Source: Podarcis gaigeae (Eukaryota). From it: a DNA stretch of 64,000 nucleotides. Below are positions 40,801 to 61,525 of the stretch, piece by piece; the stretch's first letter is position 1; the number at the start of each line of letters is the position of its first letter. The notes under the pieces are model-generated. The model made no database searches. It was not told where the DNA came from and saw only the letters and a program-made list of their open reading frames with translations. The position numbers and the translations under genes were made by a program. The stretch is taken from NCBI GenBank assembly GCA_964106915.2, contig OZ066929.1, one strand, 5' to 3'.

Positions 40801-42211
40801 GACAAGGTAGATTTGTGCTCACCCAGCTGTACTATAAATTGCCCCACTCCCTCTCCTTCCCTGTGCTGATGGATTGCCCCCTCTGTCCAGTTGTGCAGAC
40901 TCTGGCTCACAACTCCACAGCCACCCTGTCAGTCATCAAGGATTACCTGGTCAGCAAGCTGCAGAAGCAGAGCCGCCAGATTGAGCAGGACGAGCAGAGG
41001 ATTCAGAAGTACCGGGAGGAGACTAAGCGGATCCGCAAGGAGATCGAGGAGCTCAAAAGCAGGTAGACGCAGTCCATGTTGCTGGGCCTGTCTGACCTCC
41101 ATAAGACGCGGGCTCCAGAGGGAGCAAGACATCACTACATGCCACTTTCCTGCCTTCTGCCCATTGTGCTCTGTTTGGTGGTGCAATGTGATGAACAAGT
41201 CCAGGTGGTTCCTTGGAAGGGATTGAGATGGATCAAGAGTACAGCTGCTATTTACTTACAGCTGCTGTAGCAATCCTGGAATCCAGGGCAGGGGAGAAGC
41301 TTGATGCCCAAATACAGTGTGGGCATTATAGGAATGTGTTGCTGTTGCTTCTGCACATTGTGTGTCCCTGAAAACCATCTCTCTTCCTTGCCCTTCCCTT
41401 GTGTGTTTCCTTTTCTCAGTCCCAAGATCTTCCAGAAGACCAAGTGCAGCATTTGCACCAGTGCCTTGGAGCTGCCCTCAGTTCACTTTCTGTGTGGCCA
41501 CTCCTTCCACCAGCACTGCTTTGAGAGCTACTCGGAGAGTGGGTCAGAGTGTCCCACCTGCTTGCCAGAGAACCGCAAAGTCATGGACATGATCCGCACT
41601 CAAGAGCAGAGGCGGGACTTGCATGACCAGTTCCAGCACCAGGTGGGGCTCCCTGGCTGGATTTCCAGTCTGGTTTATTATGACACCTTATATCCAACTG
41701 GTGGGGAGTGCCCAGCCCTGCCTGGGATTTTTTAGGAGGGGAATACTGTGTTGTTTTAAATGCGTAGTGTAATTTGTGTTTGAACCCATAACTCTGGATG
41801 TTCGGTGAGGACATGCCAAAGTCATGCTTCCATCCACCATCTTGGTTCAAAATGGCATCTGTGCCCAAACAGCAACAAAGTCTACTGCCCCATGTCAGGA
41901 ACCATCGTTCCTGAGTTTGCCAATGATATCTCAAGAGGTGGCTGAACATATAGAGGCAAACCATTTGCCAAAATGTATAGTAAATGATAGAATCTCCCAC
42001 CCCAAACACCCCCAAAAGTGAAGCTTTTGTTTGTTCCATCTTACAGATGAAATGCTCCAATGACAGCTTTTCTGTGGTTGCGGATTATTTTGGCCGAGGC
42101 GTTTTCAACAAGCTCACCCTCATCACAGACCTTCCTCCAGGCAAATCTGCTGCAGTACTCGATGCAGGCTTGCAGCGTGAGCTGCTGATACACACAAAAC
42201 GGAGCACTTAG
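25883..42211 (+). CDS. VPS11: Vacuolar protein sorting 11 (HOPS/CORVET core subunit, C-terminal RING), 923 aa
   Basis: 16 exons in frame: 25883-26018, 26748-26896, 27652-27787, 28013-28176, 28302-28549, 29263-29464, 30006-30157, 31202-31388, 31822-31965, 33597-33785, 35054-35215, 36047-36186, 36435-36637, 40891-41062, 41420-41642, 42047-42211 (total 2772 nt). Starts MAAYLQWRRF; RING CSICTSALELPSVHFLCGHSFHQHC...CPTC. Intron 1 is AT-AC and intron 6 is GC-AG. Confidence 0.97.
26019..26747 (+). other. U12-type (minor spliceosome) AT-AC intron 1 of VPS11
   Basis: Donor ATATCCTT at 26019, branch site TCCTTAAC at 26730-37, acceptor AC at 26746-47. Splicing restores FG-D-MEGQIWF. Confidence 0.93.
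27135..27392. mobile_element. Degenerate Tigger-like MITE
   Basis: Imperfect TIRs: TA-CAGTCATGCCTCATGTTAC ... GCAACCAGAGATACCATTG; the interior resembles the 2969-3194 element. Confidence 0.6.
30478..30840 (+). mobile_element. Full-length Sauria SINE
   Basis: tRNA-like head GGGACGCAGGTGGCGCTGTGG...GGTTCGAATCC, core CCTAGCAGTTCGAAAGCA, (ACCTTT)n tail. 12-bp target-site duplication TATATAGGGAAT at 30466-77 and 30841-52. Confidence 0.9.
32611..32845. mobile_element. Tigger-like MITE
   Basis: TIRs CAGTCATACCTTGG / CCAAGGTACAACTG with TA on both sides and a palindromic interior. Confidence 0.75.
33979..34103 (-). mobile_element. tRNA-Lys(CTT)-derived short SINE with CR1-type 3' tail
   Basis: Minus strand reads AGCTCAGTCGGTAGAGCATGAGGCTCTTAATCTCAGGGTTGCAGGTTTGAATCCCACATTGGGC, followed by GGGTTGGAC...TTCCAACTCTACAATTCTATGA. 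Confidence 0.75.
34231..34712. mobile_element. Non-autonomous Tc2/pogo-like DNA transposon with GC-rich interior
   Basis: TIRs CCGTATTTTTCGTCCCATAGGACGC / GCGTCCTATAGAGCGAAAAATACGG, preceded by TA. Confidence 0.8.
35760..35990 (+). mobile_element. CR1 LINE 3' fragment
   Basis: Contains GATGGCTTCAAAAAAGGATTAGACACATTCATGGAGG ... GGACTGGATGGGCC...GGCCTGATCCAG, a CR1 3'-end pattern. Confidence 0.6.
36907..40610 (-). mobile_element. LTR-like element (about 500 bp once the nested LINE is removed), interrupted by an RTE-X-like LINE
   Basis: On the minus strand it starts TGTGATG at 40610, then has CCAAT (40557-53), TATAAAA (40523-17) and, past the LINE, AATAAA (37039-30). It is flanked by an ~80-bp direct repeat. 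Confidence 0.5.
37217..40407 (-). mobile_element. 5'-truncated non-LTR retrotransposon (APE endonuclease + RT + CCHC; RTE-X-like) in VPS11 intron 13
   Basis: ORF 40374-37753 (873 aa) has the APE motifs IIAGDFNARVG, SVIDY and SDHQP and the RT motifs GVKQGCILAP and LLYADD. After one stop it continues in frame to 37366 (GRYQNIPRNKRLCRC...EHILLHCPLY). AATAAA at 37240-35 and a short (AAGT)n tail; 13-bp TSD GCTGCACTAACTC at 37204-16 and 40408-20. Confidence 0.9.
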
Positions 42212-44249
42212 ATGGCAGTGGGTGGGTGTCCTTCAGTCCCCTGACCTTGGCTCTCCGAACGAGTGATGCAATCAGCTTCTCTTTCTAGTGCACTGTGACC
42301 CAAAAGAGGCTAGGATTTGACTGAAGACCAGGAGGGCTGCGTAACTGGCTTAGGAAACGGAGAGAGAGACCAAGGGAACTCTGGCTTGTTTATTATTGTT
42401 ATTATTATTATTTTGCCTGACTACAGCCAGGCCTGCTTCTCCAAGCCTTACAGCCTGCTGGTTAAGTCTCCTGGTTAAAAGTCTGGTGCTTCAGCATTAG
42501 CAGTGGGCTCCTGTAAGACTGTGTCGTGAAAACGAGCTCTCCGCTCCAACTTTCTCCTGGTGCCTCTTGTGTTCCAAGCTCTGTATGAAGAGGATCTCTA
42601 GTTGCCCTCATCAAAGATATACAGCGTGGAACTAAACTGACTGGATTCTGGAACTGGAAGAGTTATTTTCCTGGGGAGGTGGATTGAAGATGTAGATAAT
42701 GTTCAGCACTAATATCTCTGTAACCCTTCACTTAATAGCGGTTTACTTGCTTGAGCTATAAAGTGTGTGATTGTGGGTGAAGAGAACTATGGGTCTTCCT
42801 GTATATGTATGTATACTCTTTTCTTCCTTTCTGAACAACTGCCTCTCTCTCCCTCCCGCCTTCCCAATTCTTTGGTATTTCTGTGAGAGCCAAGAGGAGC
42901 TGCTTCATAGAAAAGGCCCAGTTCTGTGGCTAATCTTGCTCAGGATTAGATTTCTGGTATAGTTTGTGGGTGGTAGTAGAAGCTGGGCCTGCAGGCAGAT
43001 GGCTGTTATCTGAGCTGGTTCCTCCCATCTCCTCTGCTGCAATTAGCTTCCTACCACCCCGGCACTTCACCTCCTTGGTTCTTGACTTTGCAAGAGCAAT
43101 TATGCATTGGAACTGTGCTCCAAGCCACAGGGAGCTTCCTTCCTGCTCCTTCATCTTTCTTGGGGCACCATCTTCTACCACAGAGGGAGGAATAGTCTTT
43201 GAGGCTAGATGCAGGTTTGAGCTTCCTCCCACAGCTGCCTGCTCTTTTCTCTCTCTGGAGATAATGAGGAAAATGCAGTTCACTCTAAACCATGAATTGA
43301 TGTATGTTGGGGCAAAATACCTTAATTTTACATATACCTCGTGGTCTCTGAATCTGATGGTGCGCTGCCAGGAATGAGACCTTGTGGGTGGCAGTGGATA
43401 GCTCAATGGAGGTGTTGACGTAGCACGTGGCAGCTGTGAAAAAGGACAACTTCCATGCTAGGAATCATTGGGAAAGAAAATGAAAAGAAAACTATTGATA
43501 TCATAATGCTGCAACAGCAATCTGGAAAAAATATTACATTGTTAGAAAAGGGCACCAAAAATGATGGATGGAATGACTGGTTTAGAGAAAAGTTTGGTAA
43601 AAGGGGTGAAGGGGTTGGTTGCTCTCACTTGGTTGGGCTGTTACTGGCATACAGAACTAGGTGGTGTGTGGGCTACAGCAGTAGAGCTGCTCATACACTA
43701 TTTATAGTTATGCTCTTTGGGAGCTGGGGTTCCTAATACGCATCGTTAAACCTCTTCACTTCCATCAGTTGGTCCAATCCCCTTTTAATAAAACACATGC
43801 AAATTTCCTTGCTGGATCCAGTTGAGCACCACACTCGTCTACTATCCTGCCAGCTGCACTTGCTAATTAGGCCACCTCCAATAAACTCATTTGCAGCACC
43901 ATCAGGGATGAACACCAGTCAGTGGGTCCCATTTTCAGTATGCAGTGATATACCGTACTTCTTGTGCACCTGGGGTCTCCATATTACAGGATGAGAAGCC
44001 TGAGAGACCTCTCCGTTTAAGGTAGCGTTCGTTGTCAGCTCATCTTGTAGCAGAGAGTTACACAGGAAGCAGCTATACACCAACCAGACCATTGGCCCTT
44101 CTGCCTCATTGGCTGGCTGGCTGCGGCTCTCCCAGGCCTTTCAAGCAACGTTTCCTCAATTTTAGAATAAGTCTCGTGACACATTTGAAGGCGATTTGCA
44201 GGTAGTTTGCATAATACTATAGGCCAGCCCCTTTCAAACGCCTAACTGG

Positions 44250-44850
44250 TGTATTCGGGCAGGAGACGCTCCACTGCCCGTAAAATATTCGGCCGGAGCC
44301 ACGTGCTGCGTCCACAGCGCCTCACTGCAAGGACCGGAACGCGAGGCAATCCAGCGGCGCCCCCGGCTTCACGTTTCCGAAAAGGGGCGTGCGCCGCGTC
44401 GACGGTAATTACAGTATAAAGGGCATCGGGAGCCACCTCCCATTCATGGAAAGTCGCCTGTGGGAGGAACAGGAAGCTGCCGGAAGTGACGTCCGGGACG
44501 GGGAGGCGCATGCGTGGCTCAGCGGAGTGGCGATGGAACCGGCAGCGCCTAGTTGACCCAGAGCGGGACCCCCTCCAGCCCTCGCCCCGCCTGCCTGCCT
44601 GCCGGCCCCCTTCGCTGCTCGGCGCCACCAGCGGCATGACCAGCTCGCCGCCCGCCTCGGTGAGCCTCTGCGCCGCTGCCTTGACCGGCGCTTCGCTCGC
44701 TTTGGGGAGGGGGAGGGAGAGAGGGGGCGAAGGGGCGGGGCTTCCAGGGGCTCAGCCAATGGCGGAGGACGTCGGGAGGTGACCTCTGTGCATGGTGGTG
44801 ACCTCACGCGCGTCGCGGGGGTCTTTAATGAGATGCAAATGAGTTCATCC
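44250..44850 (+). promoter_or_regulatory. CpG island and HMBS housekeeping promoter
   Basis: CpG-rich. ETS-CRE composite CCGGAAGTGACGT at 44480-92, NRF1-like GCGCATGCGT at 44506-15, and exon 1 ATG at 44636 with donor TCG|GTGAGC at 44659/60. Confidence 0.8.
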
Positions 44851-47800
44851 CCCGCTGATGAGCCTGGGGACGGGGGTTGTCTCCGACCATGGCTGCCTAT
44901 CTGCTACTCCTCCCCCCCCCCCCCCCGACTTACTTGTTCAGTTTCTGTTAATTGATTCTCATGAAAACTTACAGATTCTGGCTTCACACAATTAACTCAA
45001 GGCAGTGTCAATTTACTCTTGGCAGAAAGTCAAGGTCTGCTTGACCTAGAAACTACTTTCTCTGATTGGTTAACGACCAGCACTCAACCCTGTTATCTAG
45101 GAATGCTAGCACAGTTTGTGTTAGGAGTAGAAGTGCTGTGTATGGTTAAGAGAGAGAGAGAGAGAAAGAAAGGATTTATTTTGCTTTGTTTTATATGCAG
45201 AAACTCTGCTGGTTTTATTTTTCCTTTTAATAAATCCTGTAAATAGTTATTCTGAGTCTAGCTGACTAGTCATTCCACCTCAACTAGCTTCTTCGCTGTG
45301 CAGGAAAACTCTGCTACGTTTGGGCTAAAGCCATTAGAGCTATGCCTGACACTTCAAAGTTCCAAGATTACTTGGGTGGTATCTCTCTTTTCCTACACCT
45401 GTGTGTCGTCCAGTGCTACTTTCCTTAGGAAGGGGGAATATAGTTGTTAAATGGTAGTGCTAGTTTGATTTTTATGAAACACGATTTATACACACACACA
45501 CACAATTTTGTTTATGGTAACAGCAGTAGCAAGAACAACAACAGGGCATTGGCCTCGTTTGAGTGCCCAAAGTGTTTCATGTTAGTATCCCTGTAATCCG
45601 CTTTATATCTGCAGAGAAACATTGGGAGAGGCTGGTGTTTCTCCCAGGGCTATTTTGCCCTTTGCCGGTCAAGGGAGGCAGGTTGCATTTCTAGAATGTG
45701 CTCCTGCCAAAATCAGATGCCTCTTGTTTCTTGCACAATGTTGTGCAACTTGAGCCCTGCCTCTGTGTGCAAAGGCACTCTTGCCTAATCCAAAGGGTGG
45801 CTTGGTAGGACACACCTTTGCCCTGTTAGGTAGTACACTGTACAGATACCTCCAGGCAGTTTCTACTGGCAGCCAAGGTGAGCCAGAGTGCGGTGGTGGC
45901 GAAGAGAAGTGTGGGTTTGCTGCTTCTTGCATTCCCCTCTGCTATAGGGTGCTTCATCAAGCTGTTTTTCTAGTTTCTGCGTGCACACTCACACTTTCAC
46001 ATACCCTTTCAAAGTTCCTCTGGGAATACATCCCATAGCCTTCCCATGGGGAGACTGTTATATTAGCTTCCAAACCTGAGCCTTTGCCTGGATTTTGGGC
46101 TGTTGGGCCTGAGCCTTTTGGGTGATACTGTATGGTGGACACCTACACAGCTTGCCTGATTCTGTGTTTTCAGTCCCAGATTCAAACAAATTCTCTTCTC
46201 TCTTCACACTGAGCACCTCTTTCTGTCCCCCTCGGCTGCATAATTGCCCTACAAACACAGAAACTAGTGCTCATGGCTATGTTTGATGAAGACTGAAAGG
46301 AACTGATGATTTGGGGTTGACTTCCAGAAGTCACACATGGGGCTTCAGTACCTTGTGACTACCAATCTCTCCTATGAACTATTGATATCTACTGCCCATT
46401 TTTAGCTCTACTGCCCACCTGTGCCCCTTTCCTGTATTTTTTTTTAAAATATATATTTATTAAGATTTTTAAACATAAATGCAAAAATAATGAACAATGT
46501 AACATATATCATAACATAATTTCTTAACTTCTTTGGACTCCCTCACGTCTCCCGCTCCCACTTGCATCGTTGTCAATTCTTGCCCGCAATTTATCATCTT
46601 GTTTACATTCTTGTGTCCCATTCATTTAGAATATAATCTAATAATTCTCCCAAAGGTTTATGATTTTTCCTCAATCTCAGTTATCATCCTAATTGCATCT
46701 AATTTAGTGGTGCTCAATTATTTATGATCTAGCCTCCATCTTAACATTCAACCAAATTACAGTGCTTTTTTAAATAAATCTTAAATTTCTTCCAATCTTC
46801 TTCAACCTTCTCTTCTCCCAGGTCTCGGATTCTGCCGGTCATCTCGGCTAGTTCCATATAGTCTATCAGTTGCATCTGCCACTCTTCCAGTGTGGGTAGA
46901 TCTTGAGTTTTCCAGTGCTTAGCGATGAGTATCCTTGCTGCCGTTGTTGCATACATAAAAAATATTCGGTCCTTCTTTAACACCTTCTGGCCGACAATAC
47001 CCAAAAGGAAGGCCTCTGGTTTCTTAGTAAAGGTATACTTAAATACCTTTTTCAGCTCATTATATATCATTTCCCAGAAGGCCTTCACTCTAGGGCAGGT
47101 CCACCAGAGGTGAAAGAATGTTCCATCATTTTCTTTACATTTCCAACATTTGTTATCAGACAAATGGTATATTTTGGCAAGTTTAACTGGGGTCATGTAC
47201 CATCTATATATCATTTTCATTACATTTTCCTTCAAAGCATTACATGCAGTGAGACCACAACCTTTCCCAGTCCTCAAACATGATATTATGCCCAATGTCC
47301 TGAGCCCACTTTATCATAGCCGATTTAACCATTTCATCTTGTGTATTCCATTTTAACAGCAAGTTATACATTCTTGAAAGTACCTTAGTCTTAGGTTCTA
47401 ACAGTTCTGTTTCCAATTTCGATTTCTCCACCTGGAACCCTAACTTTTTGTCATTTTTAAAAACTTCATTAATCTGAGCGTAGTGTAACCAGTCTCGCAC
47501 TTTATCCTTCATTTTCTCCAAACTCTGCAATTTCCAATTGTCTCCATCTTTTTCTAATATTTCCCAATATTTTGGCCATTTGGCCTCCATATTGGGTCTT
47601 TTTCGAGCCTTAGCTTCCAGCGGTGAAAGCCACCTTGGAGTTTTATTTTCCAATAAGTCTTTATATTTTGTCCAGACATTAAACACTGCTTTTCTGACAA
47701 TATGGTTCTTAAAGGCCTTATTGATCTTAACCTTGTCATACCATAAGTATGCATGCCAACCAAAAGCATTGTTAAAACCTTCCAGATCCAGAACGTCAGT

Positions 47801-50800
47801 GTCCTCGAGAAGTAGCCAGCCAGCAGAAAGCTGCGGCCTCATAGTACAGCTTTAGGTCTGGCAGGGCAAAGCCCCCTCGTTTTTTCGCATCAGTTAATAT
47901 CTTAAACTTAATTCTGGGCTTTTTGCCCTGCCAGACAAACTTAGAGATGTCTCTCTGCCACTTCCGGAAGCACTCCGTCCTGTCCACAATCTGTAGTGTT
48001 TGAAACAAAAACAACATTTTTGGCAATACATTCATCTTAATAGCAGCAATTCGGCCTAACAAAGAAAGTTTCAATTTTGTCCAACTGTCTAAGTCTCTCT
48101 TAATTTCGGACCAGCATTTTTCATAGTTATCCTTAAAAAGACTCAGATTTTTTGCTGTTATGTTTACCCCTAGGTACTTTACTTTTTTAACCACAGTTAG
48201 TTCTGTCTCTCTCTGAAACCGTTCTGACTCTGAATCTGTCAAATTTTTCCCCAACACCTTAGTTTTCTGTTTGTTTAATTTAAATCCCGCCACCCGACCA
48301 AAGTCTTGAATCAGTTGTAATACTCTTTTCGTACTAGATTCTGGCTCCTGCAGAGTCAAAACTAGGTCATCTGCAAAAGCTTTAAGTTTGCATTGTTTTG
48401 CTCCGACCTCCTGTGTTTTGCCCTATCTCGCTGCATCCCATTTCTTGTCTTTATGTACTCCTTTCCACAGCCACCACCCTAAGAAGAGCCGCATTCTCTT
48501 GGGAGATGTCCTAGAAAGTAAATATCAGCCCAGCTTGTGCACTTCCTTGCTGCAGAACTTTGTGGATGGCACAGATAGCCCTCGCCACCATGGGCGGAAG
48601 CAAGGAGGTTCTCAGGATGATAGCTTCCTGCATTCTGATCCATTGAGATTATAGTTGTTTGCCATGCAGTTTGATTGTATCTCCCCATCTGCGCCGCCAC
48701 CCTCCCCCTGCCCTATATTGCAAATAAGTGGTTGAAATGTCCCTTGTTCACTTGTGCAAATGGCTCCTTTGTCAATTGCTTTGCTCTGGGAGATTGTCTT
48801 CTGCTGCCTGTCTTTCCCAGAACAATTTCTTTCTGTGCAAAACCCGGACAGTTCCTTGCAAGCAGCCCCTGCAGCTGCAGTTCCCTCCAGGCTCAGTTCC
48901 TTCCTTCTCCCCACCCCCCTTGAACACCCTTTCCCCTTCTCTGCCTTATCTCTGCTGCCAGGTTGGGGCTAGTTTGCAAGGAGAGACTCCCTTGATTAGA
49001 CGCTGACAGAGCAAGGCAGCAGGTCTTCCTCTCCCCTCTAGCAAAGACATCTTTCTTCTCCTCTTCACTGGGTCCTGGGTTGCAAACCTCTGTTGAGATG
49101 GCAAAGGTGGTGCTGCAGGACAGTCAGGTAAGAGGCGTATGTCTCTCCAGGCCTCAGGAAATATTTCAAATCTTAAGAGCCATTTTGACAGGTCTGAAGA
49201 TTTTCTGGCCCTGGGTTATTGTCCAGGACTTCATACTTCTCTCCCTGCCTCTTACCCACACTCATGCATACACAATCTCTCTTTTCAGCTGTGTGTATTA
49301 TGACATATTTAGGGGTGAAACTTTACCACAACAGACAGACCCTACTGAGGAATACTTCTATCTGCAATTAGGACTTGATAGGCTCTTAACTGATAATGTT
49401 TGTCTCAGTGCTATCTTGTCCTGTGCCCTGTATGGCTCTGCAGGCACCTTTTCCTGCAGGGCCCTTGCTCGTTCCATGTGCTGCTTACCTGCGTTACACA
49501 GCCTGATCTTTGGGGAAGCAAATGACTGCCCCTTGGGGCCAGTTGTGCTACTGAATAACCTCCGCTTCTTTCAGGTCTTTGACGCATGTGTTCTTTGCCC
49601 TAAAGCCTGTCAAGGGTTGCTGGTCTAGGGCTGGTCAGGTCAGGCAATAAAAACGACATTAGTAATAGTTGTTTGTGGTTGTGCCAACAATGTTCTGGTG
49701 TTTTACAGCACAACAAAGGGAAAGGCGGGCCCCTGCCCAGAGAAGCGTAGAATTTTAGATCTGACACAAGGGAGGCAGGCAAGAGGGATGGGTATCTAAT
49801 TGCACGTTGCTCAGCTAACCTTTAGGGCTGTTCCTTTTAATGCAGCGAACATTGCAGAAGGTGTCTGCCCAGGTAAGTTCCAGTGTGGAGCTTCCTGGGA
49901 TGCCTTCTGTGTCCACTTCCATGGCTTAACTGTCCCACCCTGCTTGGCAGCCCCTTTGCGAGGAAAGGCTTGGCTGGTGCAAGCTTCCTCTTGATGTAGG
50001 GTTTTGCGGGGAGATTGTGGAAATGCCACCATAATAACCCTCCCTCTTTGGAGTAATTGGAGACATTTCTTCACAGGAGAAGAATGGCTTGAAGAAAGAG
50101 ACTATCCGCGTGGGAACAAGGAAAAGCCAGGTGAGGTTCTTGTCATTACTGTTTTCTTGCCTGCCTGCTGCTTTTCTCTCTGCTTTCCCTGGGTCTGCTT
50201 CTTGCAAAGTGTTCGTACAAACAGGACTGTGCATTGACTGGTGAATGAATTTGCATTGGGACAACAGGGCATTTTCTGTTGCTTTCCTAGTAACCAGGTT
50301 GGAACAGAGGAAGGCAGGGAAAGACGGCTGGTGCTGAAGAGAGCAAGTCATAGAACGAAGTGTATTCTTAAAGGCCTGAGTTATAGGGGTGGATAATAGC
50401 AATATATAAAAATGCCTTAAGAAAAGGACGAAGAACTATCCTCTGTTGTGCCAGAGGACAGGACTAGATCCTAGGGGCTTAAATCCCAGGAGGGGAGAAC
50501 TCAGATGAGCATTTGGAGAGACTTCTTAAAGGCGAGAGCAGTCCTGACACCGAAACCATGGTGGAAGGGTCAGAGCTCAGTGGTGGAGCCCTTGTGGTTC
50601 AATCCCCGGCATCTCCAGGTAGGGCTGTGAAAGAAGACTCCCTGCCTGAAAGCCTGGAAGAATGGTTGCTAGTCAGTGCTGACCGAACTGAGCTAGAGGG
50701 AGCAATGGTTTGTCTTGGGATAATGCAGTTTCCTGTATTGCCTCACTGGGGGCAGAGGCTGGACAGTCCTTTCTTAGAGATGTTGCTGGGTTTTCTGTAT

Positions 50801-52674
50801 CAAGCAGAGCTTAGACTTAGAGTCCCCCACTGCTGCCGGAGCTCTTAATGGCTGCTTTGCAGGAACTCACATATTCTGGGAACTATCCTTGCCCTCCCCT
50901 TCAGCAGTAGCAAATTCCAAATTCATATTAGGCTAAGTATCACAGGAGCTGTATTCCCAAATGTGCATCTTTCTGAGTTATATTTCACTCAGTGCTTCTC
51001 CTCAATACTTTGTCCCTTTGCTACTAACCCTAATTTGCTAGCAGCCACAGGGTTTCGTTTGTAAGGCTGTTACGTCATTTGCATTATACTGCCTTAAGTG
51101 TTTGTCAGCTGTGCTACTTCGCTGCTGCTTATTGAAGAACGACCTTAAAACTTTTCATTTGTATCCACCTGGCAATTAATCCATACTTCTCCAGCTGAAT
51201 TGTTTTGGTGGTGTTGAGCAACCATCAATTCCCCTGACCTTTCTTTTGCCAGGAGGATGCAAAGATTTCCTCATGGGCCGCCCTAGCAGGAGCAAAGAAG
51301 TACGCCCAAGAGCCAAGACTGGGAGGGGCAGACTTGTAAAGAAAGATAATGCTCCACCCTTGCGGTGGAGAGCTAATCTCCCATCTGCCTCCTGTTGTTG
51401 AGGCTGGTGGCAGCTCAGGAATAAACCCAGAAAGCCTGTTTGGAACAGGGGCCTAGGATGGGGCGGCACCTCAGGGCGGCATCTCCTTTTCGCTAGAAGC
51501 CTTGTCCTGGGCGCCAGAAGTGGTTCTCCACTCCTTCTCTCAGAACATAAGAATTGCCCTTCAGCCGGGTCACGTCAAAGACCCATCTAGTCCAGCATCC
51601 GGTTCTCACAGTGGCCAACCACATGCCTCTTGGAAGCCCACAAGAAGCCCTGAGTCCAGCAGCAATATTTTCACTATTGCAATTCTCAGCAACTGATATT
51701 CAATGGCACACAACCACCAACAATGGATGCACAACACGGCCATTGTAGCTAATATTCCACTGATAGGCTTTCACACCCTTTTATAGCCCCTGAAATTGAT
51801 GACCATCTCTATGTCTTGTGGGAGCAAACCCTGAAATTTAATTACGCTCTGTGTGAAGAAGTCCTTCCCTTTGCCTGTCCGGAATCCTGCAACACTTGGC
51901 TTCAATGAATGGTATTTCTGCAGAGCTTCATTCTGGGAGGTTTGCTGAGCGCACATCAGCTGCGCTGCTGCCTTCTTCCTTTTCATTCTCTGACTGGCTC
52001 AAGCCAGGTTGGCTCTCTTCATGTCTGGCTTTTTCTCTGTGGGCCCCCAAAGCTGGGGGAGGGGGGGGGCAGAGCAGATCACAGACATGAACCGGACCCA
52101 AAACCGATGAGAGTGAAGTGCATAGGAAGTGGGACTTGAAGTCTCATGTCTTCTGGGCTCTTGTGGGAACAGCGTATCGGAGCAAGAATCTGCGCACATG
52201 TCTTCCTCTGACAGCAGGTGCGTTGGGCACACTTGCCGCCTGCGCCTCTTGGGTCATAGGTAGGGCACACTGATTGACTTTGCCTTCCTTCTCTCTGAAA
52301 TTGCAGCTCGCCCGGATCCAAACGGACAGTGTAGTTCAGATGCTGCAGGAGCGCCACCCTCACCTCTGCTTTGAGATTGGTGAGTGTGTGAGGCAGGAAG
52401 CCTGGGAATTAGGTATTGACCAAGTAGTGGATGGGGAGAAAGCAAGCCAACACAGGAGCTCCATCCAGGTGCTGGGTGAGAGCAGCCTCAGGTGCACAGA
52501 AAGAGTGCTGAGCTTTTCTGACCTGGTGCATGGAGAGGATGGGCTTGTGTGGCACCTAGCTTTGTATTATTATTATTACTACTAATTAATTAATTAATTA
52601 ATTAATTTCTATATGACCATTCCTTCAAGACTCACAGAGTGGCTTACCTTGTAAAACCCCAAAATACATAACAT

Positions 52675-52714
<40 letters not shown>

Positions 52715-55700
52715 TACATTTATATGCCTTTTTTCCCTTCCAAGGGGCTCAAGGCATTGTACATAGTTCTCCTCCCCATTTCATCCTCTCAACAGCCCTG
52801 TGAGGTAGGTTAGACTAAAAGATACCCAGTGAGCTTCATGGCTGAGTGGGAATTCGAACCCTGGTCTCCCAGGTCCTACTCCCAACACATTATCAGTTAT
52901 GCCACACGTTAAATAGTAGCAAACATAAACAATATCCCCCACCCACACAGTTTAAAAGGCCATAGATTATTTAAGTAGCCAAAGGCCTGGGATAAGAGGG
53001 GTGTTTTTTCCTGGCGCCAGTTTGTATCCTACCCTACTAAAGCAGTGAGCATCTAGGAAGTCCACACATTGCTCACCTTTGTTGTAGCTCATGTCCTACT
53101 GGTGCTTGTCATCCTTCCTGATCTTCCCTCTTCCTTCTTTCCTTCCTCTCTCTCTGAATAGTTGCCATGTCAACCACAGGTGACAAGATCCTGGACACAG
53201 CTCTGTCCAAGGTAAGCAGCCGTATGCTCCATGGGCTCAAGACGCAACCAGCAGTGGATAGAAAAAGCAACCCAGGTTGTAACATGCTCTTTTCCTATTT
53301 AGATTGGTGAGAAAAGCTTATTTACGAAGGAACTGGAAAATGCACTGGAAAGAAATGAGTAAGTTCTGTTTGGCTGGGAAGTGCAGGAGAAAGCTCTCCT
53401 TGGCAGGCAATGCCTGGTGGTGCCCTTGGTGCTGGTGCTTTTCCTTTGAGCAGGAGTCTATGTCCTGGTAGGCAATGGATTCTTCCAGAGCCAGGAAGTC
53501 TTCTCTTGAGCGAAAGCGTTTCCTCTAACCCAACGTTGCAGGTTGGGAGTCCAGCAATTGTGGGGAGGGGGAACCTAGTCATGGCGCATAACTGAGGAGA
53601 GCTCTGGTGCCTTCTGTAAAATAACGGGTGTTTTTCCTGCTCTTTCTGAAACATCAGGGTCTGATGTTTAAAACTGTGTCACAGCAATCCTGAGCAGTAG
53701 GCCACATTGAGGCTGACATGCCCAGGCCCACCCAGCAAAGCTTCATAGCCAAGCAGGCATCTGCGCTGAGGTCTTATGCTTCATAATTGCTCTCTCTGCC
53801 CATCCTGGGCGCATAGGTTTGACACACCCATGACCAGCTTATTTCTTCCCTTCCAGGGTTGACTTGGTGGTTCACTCCCTGAAGGACCTGCCCACATCTC
53901 TCCCACCTGGCTTCACCATTGGTGGAATCTGCAAGTGAGTTTGGGCTCCTCTGCTTCCTTCTGCCTGACTGGTGCTCAACGCTCCGGCTCTTGGTCCATC
54001 AAAGTTTGCCCTGGCCAGGCATCCGACTTCCCATTTCCACGTCAGCTGTTGGTTCCCTGTGGAAGTGGCCCTGCCCACCAAACCACCTAACTTCCAGAGC
54101 ATCAGATGGGTAACGCCTTCTTTAACCCATTTCAACTGGCCACTGCCTTAGGCCAAGTGGTGGCCTTTGCTGTGAACAGACAAAAGTCCAGGTCGTGTAG
54201 CCTCCCACTGTCTCTTTGCAAGAAATTTGGGAGGCAACTGCTGCTGATGCAGCAGCAGCCCTGCTGACCTGCTCCCTAAAAGGCAACCCTGTCTGTCCGT
54301 TGCAGGAGAGAGAGTCCATATGATGCGGTCGTCTTCCACCCTAAGCATGCAGGCAAGAGCCTCCACAGCCTCCCTGAGAAGAGGTGAGTTCCACTTGTTC
54401 CTTCCTTGGGTTCCATCTGGTGTGCAGGGAGGGCTGAAATTAGCATTTTGCCCCAGCTTCAACCCCTCTTGGGTAGCAGTGCTGAGAGGGGTCCCTGCCT
54501 GGCTGAGGTCTTGCCCAGAGTTGACACTTTGCTGCCAGGAAATAACAGCACATGGTCCCATGTAGACAATGTTTCTGCAGAGGTGTCCGGGGGACTGTTC
54601 CTAACTCTGCTCAGACGGGTGAGGCTGACCAGTCCAGACTCTTCTTTGACACCGTTTTCCTTTTGGCTCTCTGGCAGCGTGATCGGGACCAGCTCACTTC
54701 GCCGGGCAGCTCAGCTGAAGAGAAAGTTCCCTCACCTGGAATTCAGGGATATTGTATCCTTTGAAAATGACCCCTGGACTTAGACTGGCCCTTGAAAAAC
54801 CAAACAGTGATGCCCCCTCTCTGTACACCCCCCCGTCTCACCATGCTTAGCCTTTGCACTCAAATTTTGCCACCATGTGCGAAAAGGACACCTTGTGGAG
54901 GTTGAATGTCCTAGTGGAGAATGTGGCCATTCCTTTGAATATGCAGCTTCTGTTATATTGAATATGAACTTTTTCAAGGCCCCACATCCCTGGCTTGGCT
55001 TTGAATCGGGGCCTAGCCAGGCATTGTGCTGAGATGCAGCCCGGAGGCCTGGCAGAGGAGCTAAGGTCTTGAGCCGCCTTCTCCCCTGCAGAGAGGGACT
55101 GTGATGTTAGAACACCCTCCCTGGTGGCCAGCTCTGGAAGTGCAGGCCATGGGCCATCCAACCAGGGATCTCTGTGGTTTTCCCTTAATCCTTCTTGTAG
55201 AGGGGAAATTTGAACACTCGCTTGAAGAAGCTGGATGAGAAGGAGGATTTCAGCGCCATTGTCCTGGCAGCGGCTGGCCTCAGGCGGATGGGCTGGGACA
55301 GCCGCATTGGTCAAGTAAGTAGGGCACAAGAGATTGGGATGGAGGTTGTGTCGTCGTCGTTCCCGCCACCGCCGCAGCCCCTTCATCGTGCCCAGGGAGC
55401 TTCTCCTCCTTGTGTCTTCAGTTCTTGAGATGCTCACTGATTTCTGCATTCCTTTGGGATATATAAACTGAATGAATTTGTGAAACGCCCTGAGGTGTAT
55501 AGGGCTGAATACAAATTTAAAATAAATAAAATATTTTGCTCCGCCTTTGTTCTGAGCATCACCAACCCTCGTTCTGCTTCCTTCCAGGTCCTGAGCCCCG
55601 CAGACTGCTTGTACGCAGTTGGGCAGGTACAGTATGTGATGTGCTCTCCGTTCTGGCCCTGCTGTGTGTGCGAACAGCTGAGCCTCCCCAACACACCCTT

Positions 55701-58700
55701 CTTCTTGAGGGTGCCTTTCGCTCTTTCTCCAACTGCTCCTCGCCCTCAAATGAGCACCCCAAAGTCAGGCTATGCACACATTCCAACAAATTCTCTCTAG
55801 AGAGCAAACTCTCACCTGGTGTGAATCCCAAAGCTGGAAGGTTAAATGGCCTTGGTGCTCCGAGGCTGCGCCGCTTGCCCTGATGGGTACCAGCTTCTGC
55901 ATCCTCCCATTTGTGCAGGTATGGCTAACCTGTGGCCCTCTAGAATTTGTTGGCCTACACCCCCAAATCAATCCTGGCCATGTACTGTAAAGTGCATGAA
56001 CTGTAAACTGTAAAAGTGGGTTTCCCCAAATTTAAAAATGTTGCTAAGCTCTCTTTTCACTGCATGCCTTGCTTGCCCCTTGTCCAAAAGTGGGTGAAAT
56101 GTATGCATTGTGGGAATCCTTGAAGACATGTTCTTTTGTCTCTCGGAAATCCCAGCAACAAAAATGCCAAAATCCATCACAGGGCAATTCCTTTCTAAAG
56201 CCAACCAGAATGTCACAAAATATTGTGCCAGCTTTTGAGTCCCCCAGAACTATTCATTGGGCTGAAGTAAAGAAAACACAGAAACTTAAAAGCTTGCACT
56301 ATATTGTGACATTTTGGTTGACCTAATAAAGGCATTGGCATAATATGGATTTAGTAATTTTTCTTATGGGTCAGTATGGCTGGCTTTCCACCCACCCACC
56401 CACTGAAAGCAGTTTTTAGCAGGGGCTTGTGGGGGAAAGGGGTAGTGGATGCTTTGGTAGTCATATGTCTCCATCTCAAGCTCAAGCCTGCTTCACAGAG
56501 TAGAGAGAGACTGCTCCTGTTGTTATCTGACTGCTGACCCTGGTCGTTGCAGAGCAGAGGCTTTGAACGCTGTGGGGGCTGCGTAGCCACTAGGCTGTTC
56601 TAGAAGCTGAGAAGGGCCTCTTTCCCTGCTCCTCTTCCTTTCTCCAGGGAGCCCTAGCAGTGGAGGTGAGAGCCAGGGACCAGGAGATCCTTGATATGGT
56701 GTCCGTCCTGCACGACGGTGAGACGGTGCTGCGCTGCATTGCAGAGAGGGCCTTCATGAAGCACTTGGTAGGTTTCAGGAAGTGCTTGATCGGAGGCCAC
56801 AGCAGCCACCTGCTTATGTGGGGCTCAGGGCAGTGGGGTGCTTCCTTCCCAGGGAGAAGAGGAATTCAGGGATTTTGTTTTTTTAAATAGTTCTGAGTTG
56901 CATTTGTTTCTCAGTTTGATCCTTTCCCATGGCATGCATTGTGACTTGCGGTTATTATTGATAGTTTATTGCAATTGTTAAGAGTGAATTTGTTTAGTCA
57001 TCATTGGTTGATGTTTTGAGTTATTTTATTGTGTACCATTATAGTCAAATAGATTATTGAATATTACTTTGATATGTCATTCATTAAAGTTATGCCATGT
57101 TATGGCTTTTTTAATTGGATCAAGTTATGACAAGTTGTGTGTTCTTTGTTGTATATTTTGTTGCTGTGAACCGCCTTGTTTAGTAATATGGAAAAGTGGT
57201 ATGCTATGCTAATTAAAAGTAAAATGAAGAGGGAGGCTTGGCAACAGCGTCATTCATCTCCCCGACATTTTCCATTCCAGGAAGGTGGCTGCAGTGTCCC
57301 TGTGGCAGTGAACACCGTGCTGAAGGACTTCCAGGTAATGACAATTCAGAATACCATAGGCCTTGTTTTTTCCAGCCAGCAGCCAGGCTGGGTCTCTCTT
57401 AGCAATGGTTTGTGGGCCGCTCCCAGCATTGAAAGCAGTTGGTGGAGGGAGAGACCTGTGCTGGATGCAATAGCCCTGCTTGGTATGAAGGGTTCCCTGA
57501 CTGAGATGGAGCAAAGAACCCTCGAACCAGTGAACTCACATTCATGACATGTGACCCACCTTCTTGGCCTTCCACCTGCAATACAAGGATAACAACACTG
57601 GCCTACTCTATAGGGTTGTTGTAAGGATCACCAGAAGATAATCTATGGTTATTATCAACCGACTAGCTGTTTGCTAGCCAGGGATGGGGAATCTGTGGTT
57701 CCAATCCCCATCATCCTATTGGCTGTGGCTGATAGTTATTATTAAAAAGCATTTATAAACCACTTTAAAAATGCTGAGTTGGCAGTCCCCCCACTTCAGA
57801 CATTCATTTCCCCTTTTGACTGGATCAGTCTCAGCACTCATCCTGGAAGATTTGGTAGTTCACATAAAAGTTTAAGTTGCTGCTTCCAGCCTGATAATTC
57901 CTTCCTGTCCTTCTAGGACCCTTCCTTTTTAAAAAAGGTGACTTAATTCTGAATCCCAGACTCTTGTAGAAGATGTCACACACTGCCTATCCCTTGGTTT
58001 TCCCTTCTCTATCCCTTCTCCAAAGGGAGAGCTGTGTGCGGTGCTGTTGACGTTTTCTCTTTATTTTCCCTAGTTATATTTGACTGGAGCAGTCTACAGC
58101 CTTGATGGATCAGAGAGCCTACGTGAGACCATGCAAGCAAGCATGAATTATTTCCCACATGAGGTACTCGCTACTGTATTGCAAAACAGCACATTTTCTA
58201 GGCTTCCACACAGGGGAAAACCTTTCTGCTTGGCTCCTCCCATGACACAGAGAGAAAACCCCCCAATAAAACTACATCTAAGCAAAGTGTGGGGAGCTTT
58301 TGGCTGTTGCTGAACTACGCTTCCCATCATTCCTGGCAATGGGTCCTGCTTGTTCAGACTGATGGAAATTGTAGTTCAGTAATATCTGGAGGGACAAAGC
58401 TTCCCCACACCTTATTTAAGCTTTGTTTCCTATTATATCCAAAACGGAGACACTGGCCTGTTGCTCCCAAACAAGCCACTGTATGTAAGGCAGCAACAGA
58501 CCCTAATCCTGGATTTCAGTGTTAACAGGAAGCAAAGCTTAAGTGCAACTTCCTGGTTTGCTTCACAGGAGTGAAGCAGGAACTATTGCAAAGTATGCAG
58601 TAGCATGCTCCTCATTCACACTAAACCATGGCTTATTGTAATATGCTAACAAGCTCATAGATGTTTTGGCCAATAGTGTTAGTCACACTTGTTCAGCCAC

Positions 58701-59430
58701 CTCCATTAAAAGACCAGCTGTACAATCCTAGCATCTTGTTTATATGGGTTGTTTTCCCTCCTCTAATTTTACTGCAGGATACAAAACCAATGTTAAATTT
58801 GAGGAGGCTCACTAAAAGGACCCCTGACAGTTAAGTCCAGTCGTGAATGACTGTGGGGTTGCAGCACTCATCTCGCTTTACTGGCTGAGAGAGCCGGCGT
58901 TTGTCCACAAGTTTTTCCGGCTCATGTGGCCAGCATGACTAAGCCGCTTCTGGCGAAACCAGAGCAGCGCACGAAAATGCTGTTTCCCTTCCCGCTGGAG
59001 TGGTACCTATTTATCTATTTGCACTTTGATGTGCTTTTGAACTGCTAGGTTGGCAGGAGCTGGGACCGAGCACCGGGAGCTCACCCCATCGCGGGGATTT
59101 GAACCACCAACCTTCCGATCGGCAAGGCCTAGGCTCAGTGGTTTAGACCACAGCATCCCCCACTATCCTTCAATAAATGTGAATCTTGAATTGCTGCCTC
59201 TAACCCTCAAATGTCCTATTGCTGGCTAAGGAATTTTGCATCTTACTTTTACTTTTCAGAATGAAGATGGCCCCAACGATGACATCCAGCATGTTGGCAT
59301 CACTGCAAAGAATTTCTCTCAGTCTGCTCAAGTGGCTGCAGAGAAGTTAGGCATTCAGGTGGCTGAGCTCCTCCTGAGCAGAGGGGCAAAGCACATCCTC
59401 AACGTGGCCCGACAGCTCAACGATGCCTGA
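44636..59430 (+). CDS. HMBS: Hydroxymethylbilane synthase (porphobilinogen deaminase), housekeeping isoform, 358 aa
   Basis: Exons 44636-44659, 50077-50130, 52307-52379, 53162-53211, 53303-53358, 53857-53934, 54306-54383, 54678-54753, 55201-55314, 55588-55626, 56648-56767, 57281-57334, 58074-58163, 59260-59430 (1077 nt, in frame). Motifs [43 protein letters not shown] and EGGCSVP (cofactor Cys). Confidence 0.96.
46441..48408 (-). mobile_element. 5'-truncated, frameshifted L1-clade LINE (3' half of ORF2) in HMBS intron 1
   Basis: Three overlapping ORF pieces (48359-47796, 47842-47240, 47295-46741) with [24 protein letters not shown] and CWKC...HLWWTC motifs. AATAAA and poly(A) near 46461-46437; TSD TCCTGT(A/G)TTTT at 46430-40 and 48409-19. 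Confidence 0.9.
48911..48961. promoter_or_regulatory. Candidate erythroid-specific HMBS promoter (two CACCC boxes + GATA/TAL1 composite)
   Basis: CACCC at 48912-16 and 48925-29; minus strand 48961-48946 reads CTG-GCAGCAG-AGATAA. Confidence 0.7.
49098..49127 (+). CDS. HMBS: Candidate alternative (erythroid) coding first exon of [14 protein letters not shown]
   Basis: Strong Kozak context gagATGG, 10 codons, strong phase-0 donor CAG|GTAAGA, in frame with exon 50077-50130. Confidence 0.7.
51540..51880 (-). mobile_element. CR1 LINE 3' fragment
   Basis: Begins AGAACATAAGAA...CCCATCTAGTCCAGCATCC, the reverse complement of a CR1 3' end, and continues into degenerate CR1-like sequence. Confidence 0.6.
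52675..52908 (-). mobile_element. tRNA-derived squamate SINE (MIR/Squam3-like) with (TAAA)n tail
   Basis: (TTTA)n tail, core CAACAGCCCTGTGAGGTAGG, and B-box GGGTTCGAATTCCC on the minus strand. Confidence 0.7.
54754..55200 (+). other. U12-type GT-AG intron of HMBS
   Basis: Donor GTATCCTTT at 54754, branch-like CCTTAAT at 55183-89, and AG at 55199-200. Splicing restores [12 protein letters not shown]. Confidence 0.88.
58813..59160 (-). mobile_element. Sauria SINE (older copy)
   Basis: The reverse complement shares its head, core (CCAACCTAGCAGTTC) and 3' region with the 30478-30840 element. Confidence 0.85.
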
Positions 59431-61084: not shown

Positions 61085-61525
61085 CTAGTATTCCTGGGAG
61101 GCCTGGGTGGCTTTCTTCCTCGGCGCCGCTCCGCTCGCCGCTCCTCCTCCTCCAGCGCCGGCCTTGCGGGGCAGAAGGGCGGCGGGGATGTTGGGCAGGA
61201 CGCCGCCCTGCGCGATGGTGACGCGGCCCAGGAGGCGGCTGAGCTCCTCGTCGTTGCGCACGGCCAGCTGCACGTGGCGAGGTACGATGCGCGTCTTGCG
61301 GTTGTCCCGCGCCGCGTTGCCCGCCAGCTCCAGGATCTCGGCAGTCAGGTACTCCAGCACCGCGGCGAGGTAGACGGGCGCCCCGGCCCCGACCCGCTCC
61401 GCGTAGTGGCCGCGCCGCAGCAGCCGGTGCACGCGCCCCACCGGGAATTGCAGCCCGGCCCGCGACGAGCGCGACTTCGCTTTGGCCCGAGCCTTGCCGC
61501 CCCCGGTTTTCCCGCGGCCCGACAT
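61085..61525 (-). CDS. H2AX: Histone H2AX, 146 aa, intronless
   Basis: H2A core ([19 protein letters not shown]...[21 protein letters not shown]) with the diagnostic C-terminal ATQASQEY motif; syntenic position next to HMBS. Confidence 0.98.

Follow-up and report, generated by a model that had tools for sequence, protein, structure and literature searches.

We think it probable that the HMBS gene of a lacertid lizard uses two coding start exons that splice to the same exon 3, with the second transcribed from a putative red-cell promoter of GATA1/TAL1/KLF1 type in intron 1. The complete gene lies inside the window (the 64-kb stretch of DNA analysed here). The second first exon (49098-49127) is almost certainly used and is very probably a true first exon. 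Its use is likely biased toward erythroid cells, to judge from motifs and position. A layout with two coding starts is quite likely ancestral for tetrapods and, somewhat less surely, for bony vertebrates.

The gene is on the plus strand. The coding part of exon 1 (44636-44659) has eight codons and a phase-0 donor. It lies in a CpG-rich region (CpG o/e 0.9 and GC 0.67 across 44250-44900), and the CpG island includes a housekeeping-type upstream promoter piece (44292-44452), a copy of which is also found inside a hAT-like element. At the second first exon CpG o/e is 0.1, versus 0.9 at exon 1. The coding part of this exon has ten codons and again a phase-0 donor. The common exon 3 (50077-50130) is bounded by AG and GT in phase 0, and two stops in the intron before it close its reading frame. 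The other twelve coding exons run to the stop codon (52307-59430). The exon model is open throughout and gives 360 or 358 residues, 354-359 of them identical to lacertid records. Genome searches found a single copy of the second first exon and one HMBS last coding exon in the lizard's own genome, and an Rfam scan of 44000-52500 gave no match. Intron 1 also holds a high-copy insertion, LINE-like by eye, at about 46266-48408. A contig from organism B jumps from 46265 to 48409, so the insertion is absent there. A single-exon histone H2A on the minus strand (61085-61525), placed tail to tail with HMBS just as mammals have it, ends in SQEY and is presumably H2AX.

In mammals, HMBS exon 2 is non-coding and the erythroid promoter maps to intron 1. 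The candidate promoter in the lizard is likewise in intron 1, downstream of a CpG-island promoter, and has GATA and CACCC motifs near the start of the second exon. The motifs named in the preliminary description are all present. Its two CACCC boxes are at 48912 and 48925 (48909-48929, plus strand); of these the first alone makes up a complete KLF-type CCNCACCC (48909-48916). The CTG-N7-AGATAA composite, a predicted TAL1/GATA1 site, is on the minus strand at 48946-48961; intron 1 has no other, and the window has four in all. When the 250 bases ahead of the ATG, a region picked after the motifs had been seen, were dinucleotide-shuffled 5000 times, 0.22 per cent of the shuffles contained the composite, 4.3 per cent the KLF motif, and 0.06 per cent both. 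Both also occur in 1 of the 255 real 250-base tiles of the window, which is again a post hoc count. Since the composite is kept in 17 of 27 copies of the element, the motif by itself is no mark of a promoter. We found no NF-E2/AP-1 core, TGA(C/G)TCA, in intron 1; an NF-E2 site is a feature of the mammalian erythroid HMBS promoter.

The coding features described earlier also held. The ATG at 49098 has G at both -3 and +4, the strong Kozak context that had been claimed, and is the only ATG within 48900-49127. Ten codons follow, up to the phase-0 donor CAG/GTAAGA at 49127/49128. Exon 3 contains no in-frame Met, as had been stated, and a mammalian-type translation start at an exon-3 Met is absent from the lizard gene.

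The proposal that this lizard makes two isoforms with different N-terminal peptides agrees with annotation, as both are present in lacertid databases. The second-exon form matches P. muralis XP_028563799.1 at 359 of 360 residues, and the exon-1 form matches XP_028563800.1 at 357 of 358. Lacertid HMBS records XP_028563799.1, XP_034994817.1, XP_033027731.1, and CAI5795453.1 are the same protein (355-359 of 360 identical). The second-exon peptide is the N-terminus of records P0002, P0073, P0075, and P0076, and the annotated isoforms begin at this exon's own Met. The lacertid RefSeq/GenBank isoforms are automatic, and their names are listed without a tissue or promoter label. The preliminary description implied more novelty than there is: RefSeq/GenBank already lists the isoform, and the available part of a 2015 paper reports the same layout by 5′ RACE in zebrafish hmbsb (PMC4432979). 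One annotated model (P0089, Emydura X1, 698 aa) has 349 residues ahead of HMBS exon 3, which are probably read-through from an upstream gene.

We then turned to contigs from sequencing runs of related organisms. Eighteen of 24 run rows, from six related organisms and none from the window's own species, were guessed to be RNA; no row is recorded as such, and this status remains a guess. The eight runs examined were all guessed-RNA and included none of the six other rows, hence the joint has no DNA control. The predicted 49127→50077 junction was seen in contigs from four of these eight runs, with GT..AG ends: X1 and X14 (organism A), X8 (organism D), and X16 (organism E), representing three organisms and three studies. 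Its short side was 26 bases in X1, 54 in X14, 30 in X8, and 32 in X16, so that two runs pass our bar of 31 bases on each side. X8 and X16 hold the exon-1 joint 44659→50077 as well. In X9 and X11 the form seen is the one with exon 1, whose loose end lies at 50076. The next joint, 50130→52307, is also present in contigs. Cover is absent for exon 1 in X14 and X2 and for the second exon in X9 and X11, but contigs cannot show tissue bias or levels, and we therefore did not count cover gaps or contig depths as tissue bias. The X16 contig with the 49127→50077 joint reaches past the CACCC boxes by 350 bases on their upstream side, to 48557. This disagrees with a transcription start at 48990-49090 unless the contig merges pre-mRNA.

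Other contigs show further variation at the 5′ end of the gene. X2 uses a donor at 49872 instead; the joint 49872→50077 occurs in X2 only, with a side of 26 bases. This donor closes a candidate third first exon (49840-49872, plus strand) with 11 codons, a phase-0 donor, and a weak start context. A contig from X11 starts at 49821, near this mini-exon, which is possibly the product of a third HMBS promoter. In X6 (organism C), one contig is unspliced through 49128-50076 and then spliced to exon 4, resembling the intron-retaining human erythroid HMBS variant.

Could 49098-49127 instead be an internal cassette between exons 1 and 3? A pyrimidine-rich AG at 49041, the only strong-looking acceptor, would allow it, and one fish gene model (P0230) joins both peptides in series. 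A cassette from 49042 would however be 86 bases long and shift the exon-1 frame, and contigs from three runs (X1, X8, and X16) pass 49041 unspliced into the second first exon. No joint from an upstream exon into the second first exon, including one from exon 1, appears among the 15 of 38 joints listed, though contigs cannot show starts. With the annotated isoforms starting at the exon's own Met, we regard the cassette as highly improbable. A real alternative first exon with a promoter that is induced by stress (hypoxia, cold) or active in another tissue is a less remote alternative, but still an unlikely one. According to the available text of PMC4432979, hypoxia and cold turn on zebrafish hmbsb P2, and mouse Pbgd mRNA barely changed on KLF1 induction in the portion of PMC3463598 at hand. 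Against this, the RCGTG hypoxia element is absent from 48301-49300, and the GATA/TAL1 and KLF cluster exceeds chance. Moreover, in the same zebrafish text the globin hbm rose 8.3-fold alongside a 5.8-fold rise of P2 (PMC4432979), which would fit more red-cell output. An erythroid bias of the second first exon is the reading that we prefer.

The preliminary description had suggested that this might be the ancestral amniote arrangement, and the layout is likely older still. Using homologue searches and cluster look-ups, and pairing two-peptide species by hand, we found 34 species in which two different N-terminal peptides meet exon 3 at one boundary. We excluded species for which only one isoform was returned and those whose two records were alike there. 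The pairs come from nineteen squamates (geckos to snakes), the gharial, six amphibians, a lungfish, and seven ray-finned fish. This spread, together with a Met at the mammalian position that is nearly restricted to mammals, points to an origin before amniotes. The second peptide has 10 residues in 20 of the 34 species and 4 in six snakes; N-terminal peptide lengths vary between species from 4 to 14 residues. First and second peptides were labelled by eye, so the agreement counts describe a pattern and are no independent test. Labels agree in 171 of 171 comparisons among squamates, 87 of 113 between squamates and amphibians, and 6 of 6 between gharial and amphibians. Agreement is weak for fish (79/125 with squamates, 23/41 with amphibians), and the lungfish labels (2/29) are probably reversed. 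No turtle or tuatara records with both peptides were returned, and only one crocodilian pair; peptides from the tuatara and two turtles score 25-29 against the gharial's second peptide versus -7 to -11 against its first.

Of 244 records, 35 have a Met among the four residues that precede the I-R-V-G-T-R motif: thirty-three from mammals, including platypus and opossum, and two from the frog Discoglossus. The Discoglossus records (P0132, P0183) have Met in the mammalian exon-3 column, yet keep two first-exon peptides. In three other amphibian records (P0261, P0136, P0143) one Met is all that precedes exon 3, which may point to an additional first exon of one codon. All 28 bird records listed start with one kind of peptide. 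Fifteen of them have about 19-29 extra residues before exon 3, many ending acceptor-like (e.g. P0022, P0051), which on the protein evidence reads as an in-frame retained intron 1 of 60-90 bases. An intron of that size would be too short for a second promoter and exon.

Part of the candidate promoter turned out to be repeated across the genome. A 69-base core (48937-49005, plus strand) that contains the GATA/TAL1 composite is a dispersed repeat common to HMBS and the main subfamily of the hAT-like element. Many unrelated contigs matched it in all four runs of the first set. It has 39 other genome matches among 40 scored of 103 candidates, and a 21-base core pattern has 24 other exact genome matches, against none for the control. 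All searches combined place the element at a minimum of 58 places (at least) on 17 contigs. It is about 330-550 bases long, or longer with inserted DNA, and has 12-base inverted ends and 8-base target duplications. After screening 44 loci and picking the best end pair at each, 12 of 13 two-ended loci have 6-8 of 8 flank bases matching, five of them perfectly. An 8-base target duplication with short ends is the rule for the hAT superfamily, and these two features suggest that the element is hAT-like; it appears to be non-autonomous.

Two long copies show how the HMBS pieces are arranged. L022 (1386-1923) is complete, has a perfect duplication, and contains 48748-49005, while L025 (G000:C21:42.66 Mb) has 44292-44452 joined to 48728-49007. 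In both, the intron-1 segment directly abuts the 44452 end of the upstream piece. The intron-1 promoter segment of HMBS (48728-49007, plus strand), found in long form in these two copies, is 79-91 per cent identical to element copies, in pieces. The upstream piece is 68 per cent identical to L025 over 161 bases, and its 44292-44377 part, present in shorter copies, 70-79 per cent. In the main subfamily, 44377 is joined to 48937 at a shared TTC, which resembles a deletion product of the long form. The two pieces are 4.3 kb apart in the gene and keep gene order within the element.

From these comparisons it is very likely that the element captured the pieces from HMBS, for four reasons. There are no element ends flanking the HMBS pieces in 42001-51000 (one left-end-like motif with 1 mismatch at 50578, and no right end). 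Gene order is kept across exon 1. At CpG positions of HMBS, 100 of 180 copy cells show TG/CA decay versus 9 in reverse, although cells are not independent. Finally, there are cargo-free sister copies: of 25 loci located through the left end, 14 lack an intron-1 piece within 1.5 kb, and copies with both ends and a target duplication include five without the HMBS core and seven with it. Later insertions have broken several copies (L002/L025, L031, L034, L035, L045-L048), five of them at the same point of the core (about base 27). L025 carries one of some 720 bases, possibly a solo LTR, and L045-L048 are tandem duplicates about 10 kb apart. A search for a unique host source of the filler in L028 was uninformative, as this filler is itself a high-copy repeat (1552 candidates).

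The opposite direction, in which intron 1 received the element and the gene co-opted its GATA site, would make the promoter core transposon-derived. The core is indeed 86-97 per cent identical to dozens of dispersed copies, and its non-CpG identity to them is 93.5 per cent versus 78 per cent for the upstream piece, a gap that comes partly from finding copies with the core as query. But HMBS lacks the element's ends, the CpG decay sits in the copies, and the exon is common to all sampled squamate groups and beyond. Because the element's cargo comes from either side of exon 1 and follows the order of the gene, exon 1 would also have had to insert into an element. We consider this direction very unlikely. 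There is a larger but still small chance that second coding exons arose independently in several lineages, which would make the lizard exon uninformative on the mammalian ancestor. The ten-residue peptides align poorly between squamates and fish and are known outside the window from proteins alone. Their splice boundary and phase are nevertheless identical and their modal length is 10 codons, and a chain of like peptides runs through tuatara, turtles, gharial, caecilian, newts, frogs, bowfin, and sturgeons. An inherited second exon, with capture of promoter pieces by the element, remains our preferred account.

In the mechanism that we propose, the upstream CpG-island promoter would serve all tissues, and GATA1, TAL1, and KLF1 would act through the intron-1 cluster to increase output in erythroblasts, on the model of the mammalian promoter in the portion of PMC3463598 available. 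Without a Met in exon 3, each promoter must supply its own ATG, which would result in a conserved yet freely drifting mini-exon. The peptides would then be mainly start modules with no distinct functions. The mammalian stem probably gained the exon-3 Met, which would have freed exon 2 from coding, and birds likely lost the second exon as their intron 1 became shorter. In origin the promoter core probably belongs to the host: the hAT-like element would have taken up pieces of both HMBS promoters and then multiplied. A fuller scenario is unlikely when taken as a whole. In it, the second exon is the ancestral erythroid start of bony vertebrates, which a new Met made dispensable in mammals and which birds lost, and in lacertids the element fused the captured core to the housekeeping promoter piece and spread it to 58 or more sites, some now acting as red-cell enhancers or promoters of other genes.

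This history would give a likely origin for the textbook human arrangement, in which mammals appear to have superimposed a new internal Met on an older two-exon design. The shorter erythroid HMBS is spared in non-erythroid acute intermittent porphyria. On this proposal, mammals should retain a dead start codon within or close to exon 2, and birds should have only one HMBS promoter. No change is likely in the enzyme as such. In the available part of PMC13564367, the human extension is seemingly without effect on catalysis; this source assigns the extension to the erythroid form, which contradicts PMC4628764 and bioRxiv 10.1101/2023.02.06.527353, as far as the accessible text of each goes. The captured promoter pieces would be a rare high-copy animal Pack-TIR, and the element copies offer a natural test of whether a transposon can disperse a host transcription-factor module that still works, opposite to the usual course of exaptation.

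Our literature search, with most subscription papers outside the searched set, found no account of a reptile second exon or of the evolutionary order, and the zebrafish paper was the only relevant one. The available excerpt of PMC3904948 describes conserved intron-1 sites in PBGD and mentions no coding second exon. A similar search on Pack-TIRs, again with most subscription papers outside the set, returned only PMC8277862 as relevant.

Among known systems, human and mouse HMBS resemble the lizard in having one gene with a CpG-island promoter and an intron-1 promoter with GATA and CACCC motifs (PMC3463598, in part). The mammalian erythroid form starts at the internal Met, a 17-residue truncation in the accessible text of bioRxiv 10.1101/2023.02.06.527353 and PMC4628764. 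The human and mouse form is thus shortened, whereas the second lizard form swaps in its own 10-residue peptide. Zebrafish hmbsb is closer. As described in the available part of PMC4432979, it has promoters P1 and P2 with an ATG in each first exon, defined by 5′ RACE, and P2 is induced by hypoxia and cold. Like the lizard gene, it has two first exons with their own start codons and a common next exon, so that the first ten residues differ. Its RefSeq peptides have 8 and 10 residues, as in the lizard. The P2 start was mapped by 5′ RACE and is not shown there to be erythroid, while the lizard starts are putative; that part of the paper connects P2 neither with reptiles nor with how the mammalian Met arose. 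For the element, the comparison is with animal Pack-TIRs, for which the accessible part of a survey of 100 genomes reports four multicopy cases (PMC8277862), including a frog hAT-N8 with the CAPSL 5′ UTR in three copies. The lizard element is like these in having host DNA between TIR ends, mostly of hAT type, with microhomology joins and distinct target duplications. It differs from the surveyed cases in its spread to 58 or more places and in its cargo, two promoter pieces of one gene. High-copy Pack-TIR families may be hidden as ordinary transposon consensus entries in the supplements of PMC8277862. The lizard exon and the element are therefore further members of two known kinds, the coding first exon of hmbsb type and the Pack-TIR.
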